A stretch of 64,000 nucleotides of DNA, taken from contig CAWIRC010000003.1 of the NCBI GenBank assembly GCA_963838495.1, positions 24,999-88,998 on the forward strand, written 5' to 3'. Both the position numbers and the translations under genes were made by a program. This DNA is from Pirellulales bacterium. Lineage in GTDB: Bacteria; Planctomycetota; Planctomycetia; Pirellulales; Thermoguttaceae. Below the pieces are notes generated by a model that was not told where the DNA came from, did no database searches, and saw nothing but the letters and a program-made list of their open reading frames with translations. Of this stretch, positions 676 to 49,008 are shown piece by piece; within the stretch, counting starts at the first letter, position 1; each line of letters opens with the position of its first letter.

Positions 676-2535
676 ATGCCCAAAGAACCGGAGCACAAGC
701 CGCAGGGAGCATTGCGCCAAATCGGCGGAAACGTTTGCTGGCGCGTGTGGGCGCCCCTGTCGGACAAGGTGTCATTGGTTTTTTATCTACCCGAAGGCCG
801 CAAGGAAGCGGCAATGACGCCCGAAGGCTATGGATATTTCGTATACGAGGGGCGGGAGATGAGCGAAAAGCTACGATACGCGCTGAAATTGGGCGACGGT
901 CAGGAATATCCCGATCCCGCCTCGCGCTGGCAACCCGATGGGGTGAATCGCCCATCCGCTTTATACTTTCCCGAATCTTACGATTGGACGGACATAGAAT
1001 GGCGCGGCGTTTCGGCTGAAGAACTGGTGATCTACGAACTGCACGTGGGCACGTTCACGCCGGAAGGCACGTTTGAGGCGGTCATTCCGCGCCTTCAGCA
1101 ATTATCCTCGCTGGGTGTAACGGCCATCGAAATCATGCCCGTGGCACAATTTTCCGGAGAGCGAAACTGGGGCTACGACGGAGTTCATCCTTACGCGGTG
1201 CAAAACAGTTACGGCGGGCCGCAAGCCTTCCAACGCCTCGTCGACGCCGCGCACCAAATCGGCCTGGCGGTGATCTTGGACGTGGTCTACAACCACGTCG
1301 GACCGGAGGGAAATTATTTCGCCAAGTTCGGGCCGTATTTCACCGATCGCTACCATACTCCCTGGGGAAAAGCCATAAATTACGACGGGCCGCAGAGCGA
1401 CGCCGTGCGGCAATTCGTCATCGACAACGCCTGCGCGTGGGTCCGCGATTTCCACGTCGACGGCCTGCGCCTGGACGCGGTGCAGACGATCTACGACTTT
1501 TCGGCCCGCCACATCCTTGCCGATATCAAGGCGGCGGTCAAACATGTCGCCGATTCGCAAGGCAGGATCGTACACGTCATCGCCGAAACCAACCAGAACG
1601 ACGTCCGCTTGATCAATTCCCCGGAGCAGGGCGGGTACGGACTGGACGGTGTTTGGAGCGACGATTTCCACCACAGCGTGCACGCGCTTTTGACCGGCGA
1701 GCAAGACGGCTACTACCAGGATTTTGGCCGGGCAGAGGACCTGGTAAAGGCATTCAACCAGGTGTTCGTGTACGACGGCTGTTACAGCCCGTTTCGCAAG
1801 CGCCGCCACGGCAGCAAGGTGGATTCAATCGATCGAACGCGATTCGTCGTGTGCGTGCAGAATCACGACCAGGTGGGAAACCGCGCCGAAGGCGACCGTT
1901 TAGGCGGCATCCTTTCTCCGGCCGCGCAGCGCTTGGCATGCGGTTTGTTGATGCTCTCGCCGTGCGTGCCCTTGCTGTTCATGGGCGAGGAATACGGCGA
2001 AAGGCGGCCGTTTCCATTTTTCTGTTCGTTCAGCGATCCAAGGCTTATCGAAGCGGTGAGGCGCGGGCGGCGCGAGGAATTCGCCACCCTGCGATTCAAT
2101 TGGTCGTTGGAAATCCCCGATCCGCAAAGCCCGGAAACCTTCCTCTCGGCCAAGCTCGCATGGTCATGGCCGGAGGGATCCGCGCAGGCGAAACACAGGC
2201 GGCTTTATCAAGACCTCTTGGCCGCCCGGCGCGAGTGGCCCGCCTTGCGCGATCAGCGACATACAAACGCCCGCTTAATCGATCCCGATTCCGGCGATCG
2301 AGCCGGCCTGTCCGCCGTATTGCTATTGGAACGCGGCGGCGACGACGGACTGCTGGCCGCGGCCAATCTATCCGATAAAATCGCCGTTTTACCGCCGCTG
2401 GAACTTGCCGGGCAACGTGTATTGCTATCGACCGAAGACACGCGTTATGGCGGAGGCCGAGAGGAAAACCAATCTCTGGATCGCTTGCTTCCTTATGAAA
2501 TGTTGATTCTAAGCAGGAGCCAATCAACGCAATGA
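676..2535 (+). CDS. treZ: malto-oligosyltrehalose trehalohydrolase (GH13)
   Basis: 619-aa ORF with GH13 regions GVTAIEIMPV, VILDVVYNHVGPEGN, VDGLRLDAV, IAETNQND and VQNHDQVGNR. Its stop overlaps the treY start (ATGA at 2532-2535). Confidence 0.92.
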   Translation: MPKEPEHKPQGALRQIGGNVCWRVWAPLSDKVSLVFYLPEGRKEAAMTPEGYGYFVYEGREMSEKLRYALKLGDGQEYPDPASRWQPDGVNRPSALYFPESYDWTDIEWRGVSAEELVIYELHVGTFTPEGTFEAVIPRLQQLSSLGVTAIEIMPVAQFSGERNWGYDGVHPYAVQNSYGGPQAFQRLVDAAHQIGLAVILDVVYNHVGPEGNYFAKFGPYFTDRYHTPWGKAINYDGPQSDAVRQFVIDNACAWVRDFHVDGLRLDAVQTIYDFSARHILADIKAAVKHVADSQGRIVHVIAETNQNDVRLINSPEQGGYGLDGVWSDDFHHSVHALLTGEQDGYYQDFGRAEDLVKAFNQVFVYDGCYSPFRKRRHGSKVDSIDRTRFVVCVQNHDQVGNRAEGDRLGGILSPAAQRLACGLLMLSPCVPLLFMGEEYGERRPFPFFCSFSDPRLIEAVRRGRREEFATLRFNWSLEIPDPQSPETFLSAKLAWSWPEGSAQAKHRRLYQDLLAARREWPALRDQRHTNARLIDPDSGDRAGLSAVLLLERGGDDGLLAAANLSDKIAVLPPLELAGQRVLLSTEDTRYGGGREENQSLDRLLPYEMLILSRSQSTQ

Positions 2536-5500
2536 ACACTATTTCCGATTGGGGCCGAGTCGTTGCGGGCGAAGTGGCGAAGATGGTCGGAGAACGCCAC
2601 TGTAGCCCCCTGGCTACGTATCGCCTTCAGTTTGCCAAGGATCGAATGACATTCCGCGACGCGGCGGCCATAGTGCCTTACCTCGACGAACTGGGCATCA
2701 GCCACATTTACGCCTCTCCATATTTTAAAACTCAATCCGGGGGCTCGAATGCTTATGCCATAGTGGATTACGGGCAATTGAATCCGGAACTAGGCGGCGA
2801 AGAGCAATACCGGCCCCTTGTCGAGGCCTTATCTGCCCGCAAGATGGGGCAAATCATCGATATCGTGCCCAATCACATGAGCGCCGTTCCGGTGGAAAAC
2901 CGCTGGTGGACCGACGTCTTGGAAAACGGCCCCAGTTCGCCCTTCGCCGCCTATTTCGATATTGATTGGCGCCCCGTCAAGGAACAATTGCACGACAGGA
3001 TACTTTTGCCGGTGCTGGGCGATCAATACGGGCAAGTCCTCGAACGCGGAGAATTGAAATTGGAGTATTCCGAGGGCGCCTTTTTCATCCGATATTATCA
3101 AACTCTTTTTCCGCTGGATCCACGCACATACCGCCTAATCCTGGCGCGCCGCATGGAAGAGTTCAAGGCAAACCTGCCGGCCGAGTCCAAAGACCTGCGC
3201 GAACTGGAAAGCATCGTGACCGCCTTGGAACACCTGCCCGAACGCACAGAAACCGAAACGGACCGCGTGACCGAGCGGCAACGGGAAAAAGAGGTCGTCA
3301 AGGATCGCCTGCGGCGCCTTGTCGAGCGTTCCCTGGAAATCGCCGATTTCATCCGCCAAAACGTGCGGGATTTCAACGGAACCCCGGATGATCCGCGAAC
3401 TTTCGACGAACTGGACAAGCTCCTCGACGCCCAGGTGTACAGGCTCTCGCACTGGAAGGCGGCGGCCGACGAAATCAATTACCGTCGCTTCTTCGACATC
3501 AACGATTTGGCGGCGGTTTGCACCGAGGATCCCAGAATCTTCCAGGAAAGCCACAAGTTGGCCTTCGACTTGCTCGTATGCGGCGACGCGGCCGGTCTGC
3601 GCATAGATCACATCGACGGGTTGTACGACCCCATGGAATATCTCCGCCGCTTGCAATGGAACTACCTCCGCGCCCTGGGGAAAATCGCTTACAGGCAAAT
3701 GATAGAATCGTCCACGCATGCGCAAGCCATTGTTACCGGTCAAGACAGCAACGGCAACGAGTCCAAATCCGAAGCACCGCCCAATTGGAGCGACGTGGAA
3801 CCCGCATTCCTCGACAACGCGCTGGCCCTGCTTGACCGCACTCCGGCGGTTTCGGATTCCACGTTCTCCCCTCTCCGGGCACCGACCGAAGGTTGGTCGG
3901 GAGAGGGGCAGCGGGGTGAGGGCCCAAGGTTTGAGGACAACTCCGCTTTTCGCGGTGGTGGAAAAAATCCTCGGGCCCGAGGAGCCGCTCCCGCAGCAGT
4001 GGCTCACCGAAGGAACCACAGGTTACGATTTCCTGAATTCGGTAAATGGCCTGTTCGTCGACGGGTTCGGGTTGCGGGAACTGGTCAAGTTGTACGGCCG
4101 TTTCATCGACCAGCGGCTAAACTTCCAGGAAGCGGCGCACCAATCAAAAATGTTGATCCTCCGCACCGCCATGTCCAGCGACCTGCAATTGCTCGCCCAC
4201 CGGCTGAATCTTATTTCAGAACGGCACCGGCGCTCGCGTGACTTCACGCTCAATACGCTGCGGATCGCGCTCCGCGAAATCCTGACCTGCTTTCCCGTTT
4301 ACCGCACTTACATCCGCGAAGGGGACGTCTCCGACCGCGACAGGCAATTCATACACCGGGCGGCGGCGCAAGCCAAGCGCCGCAACCCGGCCACCGACGC
4401 CGCGGTCTTCTACTTTATTCGCGACGTGCTCCTCCTCGAATCTCCTCCCGGATTGGACGAGGCCGGACGCAGCGAGCGGGCGCTGTTTGTGGGCCGCTTC
4501 CAGCAAGTAACCAGTCCGGTTATGGCAAAAGGCGTCGAGGACACCGCCTTTTACCGCTACTTTCCCTTGGCTTCGCTCAACGAAGTGGGCGGAGATCCGG
4601 CCAGGGGCGCCGCCACCGTCGAGGAATTCCACAGCCAGAACCTTGCCCGGCGGGCACAATGGCCGCGGTCGCTCATCGCCACCACCACGCACGACACCAA
4701 GCGTAGCGAAGACGTGCGGGCGAGGATAAACGTGCTTTCCGAAATCCCGCACTTGTGGCGAAAGGCCGTGAACCGCTGGGCGCGCTTGAATCGCCGGCAT
4801 CGCCGCGAAACCGGCGGCCAGCCCGCACCCAGCCGCAACGATGAATATCTTTTCTACCAGACTTTAATCGGGCATCTGGCCGCTTGCTGAGCCCGACGCC
4901 GAGGCCCTCGGCCAACTTACCCAGCGGATGCAAATTTACATGGAAAAGGCCACCCGCGAGGCGAAACTACAGACGAGTTGGATCAATCCCGTCCCGGAAT
5001 ACGACGCCGCCGTGCGCGAGTTCGTGGCCGCGGCCCTTAGCGGCCGGGGAAAGAACCGCTTCCTGGCCGAATTCCGCCGCTTCCATAAACAAATCGTAAA
5101 CTGGGGACTGTACACCGCGCTCTCGCAAGCGCTGCTAAAATTGACCTCGCCCGGCGTGCCCGACATCTATCAGGGCCAGGAACTATGGGACTTCAGCCTC
5201 GTCGATCCGGACAACCGGCGGCCTGTCGATTTCGCACTCCGCCGGGAATTGCTGGATCAATTGCAAAAATACAACCTGGAAGACGCCCCGTCCTTGCTCG
5301 CTTTGGCCCGGCGCCTTGCCGAAAATTCCCGCGACCCCATGCTCAAACTCTTCGTCACCTGGCGGGTCCTACAATTCCGCCGCCTACATGCCGAGCTTTT
5401 TCAACTAGGAAAATATATCCCCTTGGAAGTTCAAGGCTCGCGGGCAATATACGTCTGCGCATTCGCATGGGAATATCCGCCGCCATCAGGCTCGCCCCGC

Positions 5501-18734: not shown

Positions 18735-19205
18735 ATGAAAGGTAATGCCGAAGTTATTAAAAAGCTCGATCAGTTATTGGCCGAGGAACTTACGGCCATC
18801 AATCAATACGTGGTCCACGCTGAGATGTGCGCAAACTGGGGCTACGACCGCCTGCACGAGGCCATCGAAAACCGGGCCAAGCAGGAAATGAAACACGCGG
18901 AAAAACTCATCGAGCGAATAATTTTTCTTGAAGGCGCCCCCACGGTCAGCAAGCTCAATCCGATCCACATCGGCCAGGAAGTGCCCAAGCAATTTCAATC
19001 GGACCTGGAGTCGGAACACAACGCCGTCCGCTTGTACAACGAGGCCATCCACATAGCCGACCAGGCCAACGACGCCGCCACCCGGGACATTTTGGAATCG
19101 ATCCTCAACGACGAAGATCGTCACGTCAACTGGCTCGAGGAACAGCAGGACCAGATCGCACAGATGGGTGCGCAGTTGTACCTGGCCCAACAGATCGGCG
19201 AATAG
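18735..19205 (+). CDS. bfr: bacterioferritin
   Basis: MKGNAEVIKKLDQLLAEELTAINQYVVHAEMC..EMKHAEKLIERIIFLEG (ferroxidase ligands and heme Met context), 156 aa, with AAGGAG as RBS. Confidence 0.93.
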   Translation: MKGNAEVIKKLDQLLAEELTAINQYVVHAEMCANWGYDRLHEAIENRAKQEMKHAEKLIERIIFLEGAPTVSKLNPIHIGQEVPKQFQSDLESEHNAVRLYNEAIHIADQANDAATRDILESILNDEDRHVNWLEEQQDQIAQMGAQLYLAQQIGE

Positions 19206-19211
19206 GCGGTT

Positions 19212-19598
19212 TCAGGCTAAAATCATGGGCAGGGGTTTTAGTTCGCGTTTTAGCGGGTCCAGCGCCAGGCCCAGTGCTTCCAGGGTGAACGCGCCTAAAA
19301 GCGTATGGTCGCCCTTTTCGCCGAAGATCACGTCAGCCACTCCAACTTGATCTTTGTACTTGAAAAAAGCCCCGCCTTTCTTGCGTGTGATTTTCGATCC
19401 GTCGGCCAGGCGGAAAGATTGTTCCGAAATTGGTTTAATGCCCAACTTTTTCAAAATCGATGCGGGCACAACGGAATAAATCGTCCCGGAATCGATAAGG
19501 AATTCCACTGGCTGCGTAATCTTGGGTTTGGCCGGATTACCCACATTGATTTCAAGAACGGTTAAGCCCATAAATATGCTCCCTTTACTTTTGCTCAT
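19212..19598 (-). CDS. retropepsin-like (clan AA) aspartic protease
   Basis: FLIDSGT active-site motif with a LLG..LEALGL flap/dimer pattern, 128 aa. Confidence 0.7.
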   Translation of the reverse strand: MSKSKGSIFMGLTVLEINVGNPAKPKITQPVEFLIDSGTIYSVVPASILKKLGIKPISEQSFRLADGSKITRKKGGAFFKYKDQVGVADVIFGEKGDHTLLGAFTLEALGLALDPLKRELKPLPMILA

Positions 19599-19679
19599 TA
19601 TATTGTAGCATACCTACCCAGAAATGAGAATTGGCAATTACCATTGCGTTACGAAGCTATTGCAGTGAGGGCAAGTCCG

Positions 19680-20495
19680 ATGAGCGAATACCAATTCATC
19701 CATTTCCTGGCGATTGACAAGCCGTTAAATGATAAACAGTTGGCTTTCATGCGCCGTCAGTCAACTCGGGCCGAGATTACCGAGTGGGAGTTCACGAACG
19801 AGTACACTTTCGGCGACTTTCACGGCAATGCAAAAGAAATGTTGCGGCGCGGATTCGATATCCATTTGCATTATGCCAACTTCGGCATCCGGCGATTGAT
19901 GATTCGCTTGCCAAGCGGACTTCCGTGCGATCGCCGCATGTCCAACAAATTCCAGGTCGACGATTGCGTGGAATGGATCGCCGACAAAAAAGGTAAAGGC
20001 GGCATTCTGGATATTTACCCGGAGGCAGATGCGGGAACATACGAAGAAGAGATTTTTGACGTTGACACATTGCTCCATAAACTCGTTCCGATCCGCAACT
20101 TATTGATCAACGGCGATTTGCGGCCTCTTTACATTGCCTGGCTGGCATGCAACTACGACGAGAAGTCGATGGAGCCGCCCGTGCCGGCTGGATTGGGGAA
20201 GTTGACGCGAGAACTAAAGGCGTTGGCTGAATTCTACGAACTGGACAAAAAATTTCTCGCGGCAGCCGCAAAGCGGTCGCCGCCGCTGGGCAAAGCATCC
20301 GATATCGGCGATACAATAAAAGATTGGATTGCCAAGCAATCGCAAAAAGACCTGCGCACACTTGTAGGGAAGTTTTTAATGAATGAAGCAGCCGAGATTC
20401 GCGCTAAAACGCTGTCTCGCATCCGTGAACAAATGGGGGCAGTGACCTGGCCAACCGCGGAACCGACACGCACTTGGGCTCAGTTGCGCAATTAA
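19680..20495 (+). CDS. hypothetical protein, unknown family
   Basis: 272-aa ORF from the ATG at 19680, with coding-like composition. It is divergent from the retropepsin gene. Confidence 0.6.
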   Translation: MSEYQFIHFLAIDKPLNDKQLAFMRRQSTRAEITEWEFTNEYTFGDFHGNAKEMLRRGFDIHLHYANFGIRRLMIRLPSGLPCDRRMSNKFQVDDCVEWIADKKGKGGILDIYPEADAGTYEEEIFDVDTLLHKLVPIRNLLINGDLRPLYIAWLACNYDEKSMEPPVPAGLGKLTRELKALAEFYELDKKFLAAAAKRSPPLGKASDIGDTIKDWIAKQSQKDLRTLVGKFLMNEAAEIRAKTLSRIREQMGAVTWPTAEPTRTWAQLRN

Positions 20496-20769
20496 ATAAT
20501 CAAGCCTCGAAAAAATAGATCATAAAAGAACGAAAAAACACGGCAACACAAGCACAGCAATGTCACCATTTAGTTGATAATCTTCAAACGATTAGCACAT
20601 CACAACAACACTGCTGGGCAAGCAAGCAGTGACACCCAGGCGAGTGCAGCCTCCACTCTCATTAGGTGGGGATTGCTGGATGATGAGATTTTTGCTATCT
20701 TGGGGTAGTTCTTGGTGTGCTTGTTCGAAGGTTCTTTCGCGATATTCCTGTTTTCGAAAAGGTAACATC

Positions 20770-21105
20770 ATGGAATCTGACAAAACTCCTGAGAAACCGA
20801 AATCCAACTCCCCTCCCTGGTCAGAACCCGGCTTGCTCCCGTTCCTCGGTCTCTTTATTCTACTTGTTCTACCGTGTACTGTTGGCGTTGGGTGCTGCTA
20901 TGTTTTTAAGATATCTTACTGGTGGACGTTGCTGATTGGGTTTGGCATATCCTGTTTCTTCTCATTGATTATTGATGTGATTATCCGCTATTGTTATCCT
21001 TCTTACTATTCATATTTTTATAGGTCTAGTGGATCAGGAATTGGGGAGCCAGTTTGTTCTCGTTGCGGTGCTCGACAGTCGAGTTGTATGTGTGGCCAGG
21101 GGTGA
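20770..21105 (+). CDS. small membrane protein with Cys-rich tail (hypothetical)
   Basis: Two predicted TM helices followed by GEPVCSRCGARQSSCMCGQG, in an AT-rich context. Confidence 0.45.
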   Translation: MESDKTPEKPKSNSPPWSEPGLLPFLGLFILLVLPCTVGVGCCYVFKISYWWTLLIGFGISCFFSLIIDVIIRYCYPSYYSYFYRSSGSGIGEPVCSRCGARQSSCMCGQG

Positions 21106-21518
21106 ATAAGTCTGCAGTATCACTTTCTACAGTTTGGCTAAGTACCATAGTCCAGTTTCCGCCGGGTGCCACTTTACGCCGTTAACCTTTTTTGATAATC
21201 AATTTTAAGTTGTAGTGCCAGCCGCCGGGTGCCACTTCTGGCTTGTCCAGCAGTGATTTTCAATTCACTTCTTTGACTTTTCCTAGGCCGGATTCCTCAA
21301 TTTTCCCGATTAATTTTTTGTTTGAAATTAAGCCAGTCATTTTGTTGCACTCCAATCCTTGAATACCAACCTCACACTGCACTGGCAGAGCCAGTGGCAC
21401 GCGCTTTGCTCAGAATGACGCTTTAGAACTCTGAATAACGCTTCAGCACTCAGAGTTATGCTGCGTTCAGAATGACAGCCGGGTTTTCATGGCCGAAGCG
21501 CATGTCTCATGAAATTGA

Positions 21519-21609
21519 AAACTGTTTACAGTAAACTGTGAACAGTAAACAATGTACGAAGTACGAAGTACGAAGTACTGAATGCTGATCGCTGAAAGCC
21601 GACCGCTAA
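21519..21609. repeat. heptad-periodic array, 13 units in one phase
   Basis: aaactgt ttacagt aaactgt gaacagt aaacaat gtacgaa gtacgaa gtacgaa gtactga atgctga tcgctga aagccga ccgctaa. Confidence 0.85.
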
Positions 21610-21624
21610 ATTACAAGAAAAAAA

Positions 21625-21731
21625 TCCGGCGACACCTACTCTTGCGCTTTTGGCACTAGCAATCGGCTCCGAAAGCTTAACTACCGTGTTCCCAGTGGGA
21701 ACGGATGTGGTATTTCGAAAATCGTCACCGG
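21625..21731 (-). ncRNA. orphan divergent 5S rRNA-like gene (copy A)
   Basis: Aligns end to end with the genuine 5S. It shares with copy B the clustered changes CCCAUUCCGAAC>CCCACUGGGAAC and GAUGGUAGUG>GAUUGCUAGUG, and has 4 further substitutions. The T-run is retained. Confidence 0.75.
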
Positions 21732-21955
21732 AAAGGAGTGCGGCGATCGATTAAGACCTGGGTGTTTTGGTTTCAGTGCGCTGGATGTACTGCTGGGCAA
21801 GCCAGCATTAGCACTCGGCGTAAAGTGGCGTCCGGCACAAAAAAATTCCAATATTTTTCTATTTCCGACGAATTACGCTTATATGTCGCATACAAACAAG
21901 ACGCTTGAGATTTTTATATTTGCAATCTTTTTGGTATCTTTTTGAGGGAATCATT

Positions 21956-22738
21956 ATGACAACATTAATTCGGGCAATTGTAGCCCTTTCGATCTTTATT
22001 ACACCGACTTTTATATACGCCCAAAAACCAAGACAAGACATTACGGGCGAATATTTGTTAAAAACCGAATGGGGAGGTGGGGATCCTTTTAACAAATTCA
22101 CGCCCGATAACCAGTCGCTAGGCTGCCATTCGGTAGCAATCGCGCAGGTACTCTATTATCACAGACTGACTCCTTACGGAATCGTCAATTATAAATGCGG
22201 CAAAGGATATAGTATCGAAGAGGACTTTTCAAAATATCATTTCAAATGGGATTCATTTGTTGAAAAGTTAAATGATTCAAAAAAGAATGAAACAAATGAT
22301 GAAACTGCGAAGTACATGTACCTCGTGGCCACGGCCATCAAAAAGGATTTCGGAACCGATCAATATATTAAATGCGAAGACCAGCACAAATCCCAGGTCG
22401 AAGAGCATTTCAATTGCATCTACGATTGCCGATTGAAAAAATTCAATACTATCTCTCTCGACGTGTTCCTCGAAAAAGACGGCTTTTACCCAGTTATCAA
22501 ACAAGAAATAGATCTTAAAAGACCGTTGGGCTTTTACTACAGCAACGAGAACGGTTCGGGGCATGCCGTCGTAATAGACGGTTACGTCGTCAAGGATGGG
22601 ATTTTCTACGCGCATGCCAATTTTGGATGGCAAGGCAAAAGCGACGGCTGGTACAATATGATCGAAGCCTTGCCAAAAGACATAAAACTTGTGGCGCTGA
22701 TAACCATCAAGCCGAAGAAGTCAGACGGAAAAATGTAA
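21956..22738 (+). CDS. C10-family (streptopain-like) cysteine peptidase, secreted
   Basis: Cys motif LGCHSVAIAQVLYYH, His motif GSGHAVVIDGY, then HANFGWQGKSDGWYNM. A signal peptide follows the ATG at 21956 (GAGGGA RBS). The gene is very AT-rich. Confidence 0.75.
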   Translation: MTTLIRAIVALSIFITPTFIYAQKPRQDITGEYLLKTEWGGGDPFNKFTPDNQSLGCHSVAIAQVLYYHRLTPYGIVNYKCGKGYSIEEDFSKYHFKWDSFVEKLNDSKKNETNDETAKYMYLVATAIKKDFGTDQYIKCEDQHKSQVEEHFNCIYDCRLKKFNTISLDVFLEKDGFYPVIKQEIDLKRPLGFYYSNENGSGHAVVIDGYVVKDGIFYAHANFGWQGKSDGWYNMIEALPKDIKLVALITIKPKKSDGKM

Positions 22739-22756
22739 AGTCTGATCTTTACTTCA

Positions 22757-22800
22757 CCCGACCTCTTCGGGTACCGACCGAAGGTTGCTCGGGAGAGGCG
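22757..22800 (+). repeat. degenerate REP element copy lacking the GGGTGAGGG tail
   Basis: cccgacctcttcgggtaccgaccgaaggttgctcgggagaggcg. Confidence 0.6.
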
Positions 22801-22824
22801 ACAATAGGGCCAAGAAACAAAAAA

Positions 22825-22931
22825 TCCGGCGACACCTACTCTCGCGCTTTTGGCACTGGCAATCGGCTCCGAAAGCTTAACTACCGTGTTCCCAGTGGGA
22901 ACGGGTGTGGCCTTTCGAAAATCGTCACCGG
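22825..22931 (-). ncRNA. orphan divergent 5S rRNA-like gene (copy B)
   Basis: Identical to the genuine 5S except for two clusters (loop C and the loop E strand). It shares a ~20-nt 5' flank with copy A only. Its start is exactly 1200 nt from the copy A start. Confidence 0.78.
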
Positions 22932-23087
22932 AAAGGAGTGCGGCGACCGGTTAGGATCGACGCACTATATTTCTAAGTGGGGAGTGGATAGTGAGTAACT
23001 ACCTACTACATACCAGCCATCAACGAAAGCGGTAAGCAGATGGTGAGTCTGTTTTAATAGTTCATGCCACTAATAGCATCTTTTCTT

Positions 23088-25097
23088 TTACTCACTTTTT
23101 TTCACCCTCTGTGAGTGCGTTAACTTGGCCATGGCCGCCATTACATGTTCTTCAGACCCTTGGTAGCCACATAATTCGAACAGCCACCACAAGTTCTCTC
23201 CGGCTAGAGTTGAATAGAATGCTGCAACCGCCTCATCTTCGATATACCCCGCTTCTTTTAGTATCAGCCAAGATTGGGCCCAGCCTCTCAAGAAACCTCG
23301 GGTAATGTCCGAGCCAAATCGCTTCGGGAGATAAGATTCGATTACAAATCGGACATTAACCCGCTCACGTTTCATCGTGTCCGGATGCTGAAGATTGTCG
23401 AAGAACTGCTGCGTATTCCATCTGCGTATAAACTGTCCCGCCCGCTCGCCATGCAGCTTATCAATTGCCAATGATCTTAGCAGATCGGAAATCGCTTCTG
23501 TGCTTTCGCCCGTCGGATGAAGCACTTGATCGCCGACCCGAAAGTGCTCCAATTGGATGCGATGTCCGATCTCATGCAGCATGCATCCTTCCCATTGCAG
23601 CGATGCCGGGTCTCGTGGGTGCCACGAAATGAAACCGTGTTGGAAAAGTTCCTGTCCTTTGTCGCTCGCCCACAATCCCGCCGGTTCGATGTAAAAATGT
23701 TTCGCCTCGGTCAAGGGCGGTTCGCGGCCGATCCAATCGGCGTAGATCGAAAAAACCTCCTCCAAACGCCGCGACAATTCAGCCGTTCGCTTTTGATGGC
23801 CCCGAGGAGAGTGGATTGTGAAATGGGTCGTGGTTACGGTGTCAAATTGGTATTGAAGCTTCGGATCATCCAAAACGCCTTCAACGACCTGAGTGTCTCC
23901 CCATGGTCCTAACGGCCATTCGACACGGAACCAAGCTCCCTGCGGCAGATCTCGATCGACTTGAAAACCAGGATTCTGATGCCGATCAAAAGTGGTCGAG
24001 TAAATCTGGGGACCGTTTTTCTCGGCGGACACGGTTATCGGAATGCTGATCTTTGAGCCCTCGGGAAAGTACCAGAAAATCCTATTGTCGTGGGCATCGA
24101 TAACTGGGTCCAAGAGAAACTGAGTCCGGCCGAGGGCGCTGCGCCCCAGAATCTGAAGCTGGGCTGACAATCTTCCTCCCGCCTTCAAACTTACAGTCTG
24201 GTTTTTTCTCAAATCGAGCCCTCGCGGGTATGACTCGTAGTGCCAAACATCGGGCTTCGGAAAATGCACCCAAAATACATAGTTTACAAACGGCACATTC
24301 AGGTATGCTTCCCCTCGTCCGCGGATCATGAAGGAAGTATGACCGAAACGGCGCTCCAGGTCTTGTTCGGGAAACCAAAGCTGCCATTCAATAGGACCTG
24401 GGCGATCGTCGGGGCCGAGACTATCGAATTCGATGTGCGACAGGCTCATTTGGCTGGCTCTACATTCCAACTTCGCTCGCGGATTAAACTTGGGTGCGAA
24501 CAAGAAATAACCTTCCTGTCTTTCGGCAGGACGTCTAACCAGGAACAATGCGATCTCCTCGGTAACATTCGAGCTTATGCGGCAAGTTCCTTTTGATGTA
24601 GCGCCAATTTCCGGCATGAGACAATTCGGCACCAACGCGGCAGGCGAGGCATAGATGGAATCCAGTTCGGCTGCAACGTTAGTCCGATTCCAAAAAGAAA
24701 CCGTCATTGACTGCGACGGAATCGGTCGCAGTTGCACGGTCGTGTCGGAATCGATATTTACAGTCTTGACTAGAAAGAGCCCTCGGCCGCTAACAGGGCT
24801 ATTGTAGATCCCGCCCCCACCAGCCACTATTATCCAACGTCCCTTGGGTATTCTCAGGCTTGCGTTGCCGCCAGCATCGCTCTTAACGAAATCATCATGC
24901 GGGTAAGCCAGCGGCCAGTCATCAGAGTAGACCTTAAGCGAACAACCTTCCACCGGTCGATTGGATTCATCCACTATTTGGATGCGGATAGCAACATGCC
25001 GAAATTCCTCAACTCCAGCCCGACTTGCCATCGGAAGTCCGAGTCCAAACCCTGCCAATACCCAAAAAACAATGCTTTTTCTGCAGTTTTTCAGCAT
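23088..25097 (-). CDS. secreted hypothetical protein with HExxH zinc-metallopeptidase motif
   Basis: Signal peptide, N-terminal carboxypeptidase-regulatory-like beta segment (IRIQIVDESNRPVEGCSLKVY), and MLHEIGHRIQLEH. Confidence 0.55.
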   Translation of the reverse strand: MLKNCRKSIVFWVLAGFGLGLPMASRAGVEEFRHVAIRIQIVDESNRPVEGCSLKVYSDDWPLAYPHDDFVKSDAGGNASLRIPKGRWIIVAGGGGIYNSPVSGRGLFLVKTVNIDSDTTVQLRPIPSQSMTVSFWNRTNVAAELDSIYASPAALVPNCLMPEIGATSKGTCRISSNVTEEIALFLVRRPAERQEGYFLFAPKFNPRAKLECRASQMSLSHIEFDSLGPDDRPGPIEWQLWFPEQDLERRFGHTSFMIRGRGEAYLNVPFVNYVFWVHFPKPDVWHYESYPRGLDLRKNQTVSLKAGGRLSAQLQILGRSALGRTQFLLDPVIDAHDNRIFWYFPEGSKISIPITVSAEKNGPQIYSTTFDRHQNPGFQVDRDLPQGAWFRVEWPLGPWGDTQVVEGVLDDPKLQYQFDTVTTTHFTIHSPRGHQKRTAELSRRLEEVFSIYADWIGREPPLTEAKHFYIEPAGLWASDKGQELFQHGFISWHPRDPASLQWEGCMLHEIGHRIQLEHFRVGDQVLHPTGESTEAISDLLRSLAIDKLHGERAGQFIRRWNTQQFFDNLQHPDTMKRERVNVRFVIESYLPKRFGSDITRGFLRGWAQSWLILKEAGYIEDEAVAAFYSTLAGENLWWLFELCGYQGSEEHVMAAMAKLTHSQRVKKSE

Positions 25098-25346
25098 TTT
25101 TTATTACCCTTGAAAAAAACGGCCTCGCATGAATTGGGCCATGCTTAATCAAGTTAATATACCCGCGATAAGTTTTTGGATTATACCGAAAACTATTCAC
25201 ACCATTATAAACGTTAATGAGGTTTTGCTGTAAAACTGTGAAAAAAGCGATAAAGGCAGAGGATGGAAGGTGGAATTAGAGCTGACTATGGATGGCAGGC
25301 AAGAATCAATGCATAATGCAATAGTTATAATGTGGAAAGGCGAAAT

Positions 25347-25374
25347 GTAAACTGTTTACCGTGAACTGATAACT
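25347..25374. repeat. heptad-periodic array (4 units)
   Basis: gtaaact gtttacc gtgaact gataact, 3' of the genuine 5S. It is related to the start of the 21519 array. Confidence 0.6.
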
Positions 25375-25395
25375 TTACGGCAAGAAATAAAAAAA

Positions 25396-25501
25396 TCCGG
25401 CGACACCTACTCTCGCGCTTTTGGCACTACCATCGGCTCCGAAAGCTTAACTACCGTGTTCGGAATGGGAACGGGTGTGGCCTTTCGAAAATCGTCACCG
25501 G
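25396..25501 (-). rRNA. rrf: 5S ribosomal RNA
   Basis: The reverse complement reads CCGGTGACG..CCCATTCCGAACACGG..GCCGATGGTAGTG..GAGAGTAGGTGTCGCCGGA, followed by T7. It lies 188 nt downstream of the 23S. Confidence 0.93.
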
Positions 25502-25545
25502 AAAGGAGCGGAGGCCCCAATCGTAAAGGGGCGGACCGCTAAAAA

Positions 25546-25621
25546 GCTGTCAGCCGTCAGCCATCAGCCGTCAGCCAAACAAGTTTTTCTGGCTGAAAGC
25601 TGAGAGCTGAATGCTGATAGC
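25546..25621. repeat. imperfect hairpin in the 23S-5S spacer built from two complementary heptad arrays
   Basis: Arm 1 is gctgtca gccgtca gccatca gccgtca gcc, the loop is aaacaagtttttct, and arm 2 is ggctgaa agctgag agctgaa tgctgat agc. Confidence 0.75.
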
Positions 25622-25671
25622 TAAAATGGCGTGGTAAGAAGTGACTTCCTAAACTTTTTTTCCAGCTCTTA

Positions 25672-25688
25672 GGAGCGTTGGATACATG
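25672..25688 (-). promoter_or_regulatory. 3' strand of the 23S rRNA processing stem
   Basis: RNA CAUGUAUCCAACGCUCC pairs with the 5' flank GGAGCGUUGGAUUCAUG (12 perfect bp, one mismatch, then 4 bp), directly flanking helix 1 (GGCCAAGC/GCUUGGCC). Confidence 0.8.
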
Positions 25689-25689
25689 C

Positions 25690-28610
<2,921 letters not shown>

Positions 28611-48587: not shown

Positions 48588-48704
48588 GCAAAACTAAGGC
48601 AATATGCTAAGCTTATCGTGGTCATGTCGGGAGTTTATAAATACCGCAAATTTTTTAGACATTTGGAGTGATCTCGTAATTTAGCCGCGAAGCGGCGACG
48701 TATT

Positions 48705-48859
48705 GTAGCCAGGGGCGTCAGCCCCTGGGGAAAGGTTGTATTATCCATGCAAGCCCCGGAGGGGCGACATCGGACGCGGCAAAGAACAAATGTCGCCCCT
48801 TCGGGGCTTTCGCAGTTTTTAATAATTGCCTTGCCCCAGGGGCTGACGCCCCTGGCTAC
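48705..48859. mobile_element. MITE-like 155-nt element with 26-nt terminal inverted repeats and a nested inner inverted repeat
   Basis: Outer repeats are gtagccaggggcgtcagcccctgggg (48705-48730) and ccccaggggctgacgcccctggctac (48834-48859). Inner repeats are agccccggaggggcgacat (48752-48770) and atgtcgccccttcggggct (48790-48808). ATT is present on both flanks and could be a target-site duplication. Confidence 0.5.
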
Positions 48860-49008
48860 ATTAATCCGGCCCTCCGGGCCTGATGATTCTTATTCACGCA
48901 AAAAGCTAAAACATCACATAAAACCGTAGTATGTCCGCGCAAGCGCGGACATGGCGCCCGCAGCAGTGGTTCTTTATTTTCATCCTACCGAGGAGTTTAA
49001 TCGCCGTT

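Follow-up and report, generated by a model that had tools for sequence, protein, structure and literature searches.

How two genes that look like 5S rRNA, neither of them following a 23S rRNA gene, came to carry nearly the same changes in the two loops that ribosomal proteins read is the question raised by a planctomycete rRNA locus. The locus lies in a stretch of 64,000 nt from a Pirellulales bacterium (Thermoguttaceae; assembly GCA_963838495.1, contig CAWIRC010000003.1, positions 24,999 to 88,998 of the forward strand), which was analyzed at its full length and is referred to here as the window. A first-pass annotation, made from the sequence alone, had placed three 5S copies on one strand of the window: a genuine gene next to the 23S gene, and two orphans, copies A and B. 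The reading that we favor, with a probability of about 0.5, is that A and B are redundant orphan duplicates of a 5S gene that derive from a second type of 23S-5S spacer region, have been homogenized by gene conversion, and are probably relics that are dead for ribosome assembly. Rfam cmscan of the window (RF00001 gathering score, 38 bits) recovered the three copies with ends within 1 nt of those first given, together with the 23S gene:

25395-25502, minus strand: resident 5S rRNA gene, linked to the 23S gene and 185 nt downstream of it (Rfam 72.6 bits)
22824-22932, minus strand: orphan 5S-like copy B, 109 nt (Rfam 54.6 bits)
21624-21732, minus strand: orphan 5S-like copy A, 109 nt (Rfam 48.2 bits)
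25688-28610, minus strand: 23S rRNA gene (Rfam 2673.5 bits)

Scoring the copies against the covariance model had been proposed as a check; the scores leave both orphans above the threshold, with model positions 1-120 covered, and 18-24 bits under the resident 5S. The resident gene is of the short, 108-nt type, identical in alignment to the 23S-linked 5S of one relative (L010, see below), and it alone follows the 23S gene directly: protein-coding genes separate A and B from it. The start-to-start spacing of 1200 nt between A and B was recovered by a repeat search and is without evident meaning. Neither Rfam nor a tRNA search found a 16S or tRNA gene in the 64-kb window; the rRNA genes are therefore unlinked here, as they commonly are in Planctomycetes. 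A permissive Rfam scan of 19000-25650 found, besides the three 5S copies, just sub-threshold chance matches on the spacer hairpin.

The orphans are 94-95% identical to the resident 5S, and the differences are concentrated in two places. In alignments, loop C reads CCCAUUCCGAAC in the resident gene and CCCACUGGGAAC in both A and B, the substitutions being U40C, C42G and C43G (E. coli numbering); the conserved loop C of ribosomal 5S (CCCAUNCCGAAC), which is a uL5 contact, is retained in neither. The 5' strand of loop E is GAUGGUAGUG in the resident gene, GAUUGCCAGUG in B (one U inserted, G76C and U77C) and GAUUGCUAGUG in A (the inserted U and G76C only), and in place of the loop E motif GAUGGUA opposite GAGAGUA, B has GAUUGCCAG and A has GAUUGCUAG. 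These two clusters are the sole differences between B and the resident 5S. Copy A departs at four additional sites (GG to UA, C to U, G to A), with the loss of the terminal helix II pair at one of them; none of the three genes has lost helix I or the T-run. In each of these respects the alignments agree with the initial description. The diagnostic 15-mers of the orphan variant are GUUCCCACUGGGAAC and GAUUGCYAGUG. Were six differences placed randomly in 108 nt, the chance of their falling in two 4-nt windows would be ~4e-5, a null that is naive where gene conversion leaves unconverted patches.

Structure prediction indicates that the shared changes make an ordinary helix of both irregular, protein-reading loops. 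In the predicted fold, the 7-nt loop C becomes a 3-nt loop closed by two added C-G pairs, and the energy of the isolated hairpin falls from -2.1 to -8.2 kcal/mol. In loop E, the inserted U and the G-to-C change give a Watson-Crick match to the unchanged partner strand (U72-A93, C74-G92 and U75-A91 in A-type copies), and the G-G position is turned into a C-G pair. The first-pass annotation was right about the sequence change in loop E and the untouched partner; its statement that the change disrupts one strand of the loop needs amending, since more than disruption is involved and Watson-Crick pairs are created. In its minimum free energy (MFE) fold (-42.7 kcal/mol), copy B takes the canonical Y shape, with the hairpin closed (6 bp and 3 nt); the resident 5S reaches -38.2 kcal/mol, with an MFE fold that is not canonical. 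Over nine 5S and orphan sequences, standard pairs occupy 93.6% of the cells of the canonical structure, i.e., a three-way junction of helices I, II/III and IV/V. Loop E is the binding site of bL25, as known from E. coli 5S. Positions 42-43 of 5S rRNA are contacts of uL5 (PMC7812874), and the orphans should, on these predictions, lose both the uL5 and the bL25 surfaces.

Whether the variant exists elsewhere was addressed by a pattern scan for the GG state of loop C (CCCANNGGGAAC in 5S context) in viral contigs, 185,579 species-representative genomes and JGI metagenome contigs; the window's own genome is absent from all three collections. The closed loop C had no match in 5S context among the viral contigs. 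A single species-representative genome matched, that of a Pirellulales metagenome-assembled genome (L001, extended as L012), and the metagenome matches were only unrelated 23S-linked 5S genes with a single C43G (L003, L004) plus one expanded 5S. Judging by the species-representative genomes, the GG state is essentially absent from working 5S genes. A further candidate route, comparing six-frame translations of copy B with a protein database for spurious reading frames called across 5S genes, gave two matches, one of them P0005 (see below), and the variant was in neither. Three protein-coding genes of the window matter for what follows:

19644-20495, plus strand: gene Y, a conserved planctomycete hypothetical protein, the syntenic anchor
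21956-22738, plus strand: peptidase C10 gene, between A and B (Pfam PF01640, 2e-31)
23088-25097, minus strand: 669-aa protein with a HEIGH motif, between the resident 5S and B, on the same strand as B

Because gene Y is shared by L001 and the window (87% nucleotide identity), the Y protein was used as an anchor to fetch the loci of relatives, and those of six further relatives were retrieved through it (L009-L014 are cited here). Gene Y adjoins the 5S-23S locus in all relatives examined, which are distinct lineages: their 23S genes are 95.4-96.3% identical, their Y genes 83-90%. The 669-aa protein, for which no Pfam family was found, has four homologs in all (43-49% identity); none of the four lies next to a 5S, so synteny through this gene gave no orphan.

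The comparison separates the linked genes from the orphans. Loops C and E are normal in five of five 23S-linked 5S genes (window, L009, L010, L011, L012), and loop C is altered in all four orphans, namely A, B and one each in L012 and L013. The L012 orphan lies ~3 kb beyond the real 5S of its genome, divergent from Y. Its loop C is exactly CCCACUGGGAAC and its loop E normal, and it otherwise equals L012's own linked 5S, including the lineage-specific A10, A13, U23 and loop-D C; the loop C triple by itself costs 12.2 bits (Rfam, 75.9 for the linked and 63.7 for the orphan gene). Its MFE fold is the canonical Y at -42.4 kcal/mol (z -3.94), that of the L012 linked 5S is non-canonical at -36.8 kcal/mol. 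The L013 orphan is found at the orthologous position, with an upstream flank ~85% identical by eye, and has the loop E of copy A, GAUUGCUAGUG. Its loop C, CCUACUACGAAC, shares U40C, has U-A instead of C-G at pair 36-40, and is unclosed in the predicted fold; helix I contains a C-C mismatch, there is one further substitution, and folding is poor (z -0.65). The L012 and L013 bodies are ~89% identical (12 differences counted by eye). Across genomes, orphan bodies are 89-95% alike and flanks cease to align past ~55 nt. Copy B and the L012 orphan are free of helix damage; mismatches are present in A (helix II) and L013 (helix I). No orphan 5S was found in the fetched regions of L009, L010, L011 and L014. 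An orphan-5S lineage, a few kb from the real 5S and sharing its strand, is present in at least three related Pirellulales/Thermoguttaceae-like genomes.

On whether relatives would share the changes or decay arbitrarily, the outcome is divided: the loop C triple recurs in L012 and the loop E change in L013, while loop C and helix I of L013 deviate. It had also been argued that the same changes in two copies are not to be expected from random decay. This argument is weak for A and B, which are paralogs with shared ancestry or conversion, and it gains weight from the cross-genome data only.

Where the orphans came from is indicated by their flanks:

22933-22987, minus strand: 5' flank of copy B, remnant of a type-2 spacer, homologous to the linked-5S spacer of L011
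22791-22823, minus strand: 3' flank of copy B (T-run followed by TTTCTTGGCC...), homologous to the 3' flanks of linked 5S in L009, L011 and L012
21733-21756, minus strand: 5' flank of copy A (TAAY...GCNGCACTYC), present also in front of B and of the L012 and L013 orphans; boundary of the duplicated unit
21513-21611, no strand assigned: short repeats downstream of copy A, families D2 and D3

Alignment confirms the earlier observation that A and B share ~22 nt of 5' flank (TAAYCGRTCGCCGCACTCC) unlike the resident 23S-5S spacer. Two spacer types can be told apart: the linked 5S genes of the window, L009, L010 and L012 follow a spacer of type 1; the linked 5S of L011 and all four orphans follow one of type 2 (in full for B, ~25 nt in the others). 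By blastn, the real 5S and spacer of L011 (14599-14794) match window 22791-22987 at 88.3% over 197 nt, a homology that spans 55 nt of the 5' flank and 33 nt of the 3' flank of B and points to an origin in the DNA at the end of an rRNA (rrn) operon. The A and B units form a repeat family of their own, D1 (138 nt at 94%). D3 recurs at 25343-25373, immediately 3' of the real 5S, and D2 at 25593-25626, within the 23S-5S spacer; as these repeats otherwise occur only at the rrn locus, the locus of copy A carries rrn-operon-derived sequence. Judged by these alignments, the orphans appear to be pieces of rrn-end DNA. Their source might be a second operon that has been lost, or DNA of a related species that recombined at the rRNA locus; the low-G+C accessory genes between the 5S copies, such as the peptidase C10 gene (41.6% G+C vs 54.4% for the window), would fit the latter. 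A type-2 spacer is also seen in a metagenome: the called 'protein' P0005 (JGI sample 3300075153) is the antisense translation of a normal-loop 5S, which is preceded by a spacer almost identical to the 5' flank of B over ~45 nt.

Gene conversion between the real 5S and the orphans is the best-supported process behind this pattern. Since the L012 orphan equals its own genome's 5S at lineage-specific sites, paralogs within a genome are closer than orthologs between genomes, and the four L012-specific positions shared by orphan and linked gene lend support to gene conversion, which the first-pass annotation had offered as an alternative; for the window itself, the informative site is a single one (the loop D A). 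On the favored reading, a 5S gene would have been duplicated with ~25-55 nt of type-2 spacer and ~15-33 nt of 3' flank. The resident 5S, as the likely donor, would keep each orphan body near-identical to the 5S of its own genome, and two small patches (the loop C triple; the inserted U and G76C in loop E) would persist through conversion. The orphan RNA, if made, is predicted to fold alone into a 5S-shaped three-way junction and to fail in normal 50S assembly. The orphans would thus be harmless because they are unable to enter ribosomes, and well preserved because they are repaired by conversion. Survivorship might add to this: a redundant 5S would be harmless if it is either fully normal or wholly assembly-null, so that surviving copies would be enriched in knock-outs of the protein-binding loops. 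Signs of relaxed constraint are the helix I mismatch and weak fold of L013, the helix II mismatch of A, and the absence of orphans from the fetched loci of relatives; moreover, the divergence between the L012 and L013 orphans was judged no lower than that of the intergenic flank (~89% vs ~85% identity). Scans for sigma-70-like promoter and terminator consensus sequences yielded nothing convincing upstream of A, B and the L012 orphan, planctomycete promoters being poorly defined.

However, several points weigh against this account. The 4-nt patch of L012 sits amid homogenized markers and would require at least two conversion tracts, or selection. Both patches form Watson-Crick pairs and are not random damage. 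Among the orphans, pair 36-40 is C-G three times and U-A once, and positions 75/90 are C/G in B, U/A in A and U/G in L013, a series that would be consistent with compensatory change, provided that 75 and 90 pair. DNA without a use is usually lost from bacterial genomes, and yet the orphan lineage survives across ~4-5% of 23S divergence. Finally, the C43G found in genuine linked 5S genes (L003, L004) suggests that not every one of the changes need abolish uL5 binding.

Several of the same points feed the strongest competing explanation, a possible but clearly less probable one: that the orphans encode a functional, 5S-derived small RNA that folds by itself, independently of proteins, and acts outside the mature ribosome. 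Such an RNA might bind uL18 via helices II-III and, for example, sequester or buffer a 5S-binding protein as a decoy, or help to control ribosome assembly. Selection would account for an identical loop C triple in two genomes and an identical loop E change in two genomes, and for a patch in L012 that survives although both sides of it were homogenized. The changes form pairs and stabilize the canonical fold (B, -42.7 vs -38.2 kcal/mol; L012 orphan, -42.4 vs -36.8 kcal/mol), and helix I, the U-run and ~20 nt of 5' flank are retained in four of four orphans. The U-A/C-G exchange at pair 36-40 and the C-G/U-A/U-G series at 75/90 look like covariation; over four sequences, however, it falls short of significance (the observed value is reached in 54 of 500 shuffles). 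The L013 orphan, with its unclosed loop C, mismatched helix I and poor folding, is difficult to reconcile with such a function, as is the helix II mismatch of copy A. Moreover, the matching loci of three or four close relatives are without an orphan, the L012 and L013 bodies (~89% identical) were rated no better than their flank (~85%), and the consensus scans found no sigma-70-like promoter. A more specific version is more tentative still: Thermoguttaceae-like planctomycetes might possess a family of 5S mimics with zipped loops that track the real 5S by conversion, and either titrate uL18 or another factor or report the supply of 5S in ribosome assembly.

For copy B, co-option of the 5S-like fold as a terminator or 3'-end stabilizer is conceivable, though improbable as an explanation of the orphans, and would be compatible with their being relics. 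The 669-aa gene ends 155 nt upstream of B, on B's strand, and its mRNA would be terminated by B, whose helix I and U-run are the only terminator-like feature downstream of the gene. However, no gene lies upstream on the same strand in the case of A or of the orphans of L012 and L013, and the loop changes would be left unexplained. A bidirectional terminator for convergent genes was considered as well and rejected, as the antisense strand has no U-run after the stem.

Even less probable is a working alternative 5S in a subpopulation of ribosomes, perhaps under particular conditions. The orphans are full length, score above the Rfam threshold with terminator-like ends, and have been credited with intact helices throughout, and a single C43G is tolerated in genuine linked 5S. 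What speaks against a ribosomal role is that both of the most conserved protein-contact sites are rewritten, including the uL5 contacts at 42-43, that regular pairs replace the loop E motif, that the copies are unlinked to 23S, and that the GG state occurs in no species-representative genome other than L012. An assembly artifact or collapsed, chimeric repeats can be dismissed almost entirely: repeats near rRNA genes are classic sites of misassembly, but an independent short-read unitig (L005, Logan ERR10755944) matches window 21717-22845 at 100% identity, with one end inside A and the other inside B, thereby supporting both junctions and answering the earlier call to exclude assembly duplication, homologous orphans exist in two further assemblies (L012, L013), and each copy has unique flanks.

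Bacterial 5S genes that are orphaned or aberrant are usually dismissed as pseudogenes. Stand-alone 5S genes (Desulfallas gibsoniae), truncated remnants (Pseudoalteromonas, Peptococcaceae) and expanded 5S have been described in bacteria and discussed as early pseudogenes or as candidate extraribosomal RNAs, with recombination with normal 5S proposed for them (PMC7812874). The orphans of the window resemble these cases in being 5S-derived, in lying outside the operon with a piece of the normal upstream region, and in their uncertain expression. They differ in that the published examples are truncated or carry large insertions, whereas A and B are full length (model positions 1-120 are covered), contain a single inserted U, and have pair-forming loop changes that are shared across genomes. 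Compared to the 23S-linked genes of RF00001, they agree in length class (108-109 nt), helices I-V, loops A, B and D, and helix I followed by a U-run, and depart in being unlinked, with loop C closed to a triloop and loop E in Watson-Crick form. An additional 5S downstream of an operon's own 5S and on the same strand is also seen in E. coli rrnD; extra operon-end 5S genes of that kind are near-identical, functional genes inside the operon transcript, whereas here protein-coding genes, one of them on the opposite strand, intervene and the loops are altered. Gene conversion is an established cause of concerted evolution among rRNA genes, e.g., those of the rrn operons of E. coli (PMC8022953); the L012 orphan likewise tracks the 5S of its own genome at lineage-specific sites, but the same patches escape in different genomes, and the partner is an orphan and not a second operon. 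Literature searches found no description of a planctomycete orphan or variant 5S of this kind. What is new is a full-length orphan lineage, found across genomes, whose consistent differences are only pair-forming rewrites of the uL5 and bL25 sites.

The consequences depend on the reading. If selection maintains the orphans, they would be a rare case in bacteria of a duplicated rRNA gene put to use outside the ribosome, and would offer a natural 5S mimic with which to probe the assembly of the 5S ribonucleoprotein particle (RNP). The eukaryotic 5S RNP has extraribosomal roles, to which a mimic, if this idea is true, would be the bacterial counterpart. If the orphans are neutral, they would provide a clean case of partial conversion between an rRNA gene and an orphan, and of the survivorship of assembly-null alleles. 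In either case, Rfam and other pipelines will annotate them as 5S genes and so inflate the 5S copy number in planctomycetes.

The surroundings of the 5S copies show further repeats and rearrangements. As 138-nt direct repeats, A and B enclose the peptidase C10 gene (21619-22956); B and the real 5S enclose the 669-aa gene in the same way. Single-crossover integration at a 5S sequence would leave such an arrangement, which suggests that 5S copies act as recombination anchors for accessory genes. The genes next to the rRNA locus (window 19212-20495), namely Y, a retropepsin-like gene called 'X' and small open reading frames, differ in order among the window, L010, L011 and L012: X is to the left of Y in two of them (the window and L011) and to its right in L010 and L012. 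In this comparison, the 5S-proximal region is a hotspot of rearrangement and gene turnover. Between the stop codon of the C10 gene and copy B, a stretch of 37 nt (22762-22798) matches 3870-3906 at 92% (blastn). A local REP-like repeat (ACTGCTGGRCAAGC plus AAGTGGCACCCGGCGG) is present at 20610-20635, 21156-21258 and 21789-21841 and absent elsewhere in the window. Two of its three copies bracket copy A as a 26-nt inverted repeat (21156-21181 and 21816-21841, with 634 nt between the arms). That A belongs to a mobile element was considered for this reason and discarded: the inverted repeats belong to the REP-like repeat that also occurs at 20610, and there is no integrase or transposase nearby in the window.

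At 25529-25626, the 23S-5S spacer itself has repeats with a 7-nt period, of the GGCTGAC and CAGCTNT types, which form a long hairpin. Heptads related to them (ACTGNNN) are found at the same spacer position in L009-L012, and they recur downstream of A and of the real 5S, where the motif has 6 matches vs 0.55 expected (sites 21513-21611 and 25343-25373). In these rRNA operons, the spacer heptads may serve in processing or as a binding site. Among the linked genes, the 5S of L009 (13431-13538, minus strand, 65.2 bits) has two mismatches next to each other in helix I (C2 to A, G106 to A), which could be a long-read assembly error or a real variant. Unusual 5S genes also turned up on metagenome contigs: L004 has a second 5S (1823-1937, minus strand, 62 bits) ~1 kb downstream of a normal linked 5S (107.7 bits), and the unrelated contig L002 carries an expanded 5S of 157 nt (887-1043, minus strand). 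Farther away in the window are two motifs of the Acido-Lenti-1 family (RF01687), which has no known function and whose name refers to phyla other than that of a planctomycete; they lie at 48683-48728 (minus strand, 53.4 bits) and 48836-48881 (plus strand, 52.8 bits), 108 nt apart and facing outward.

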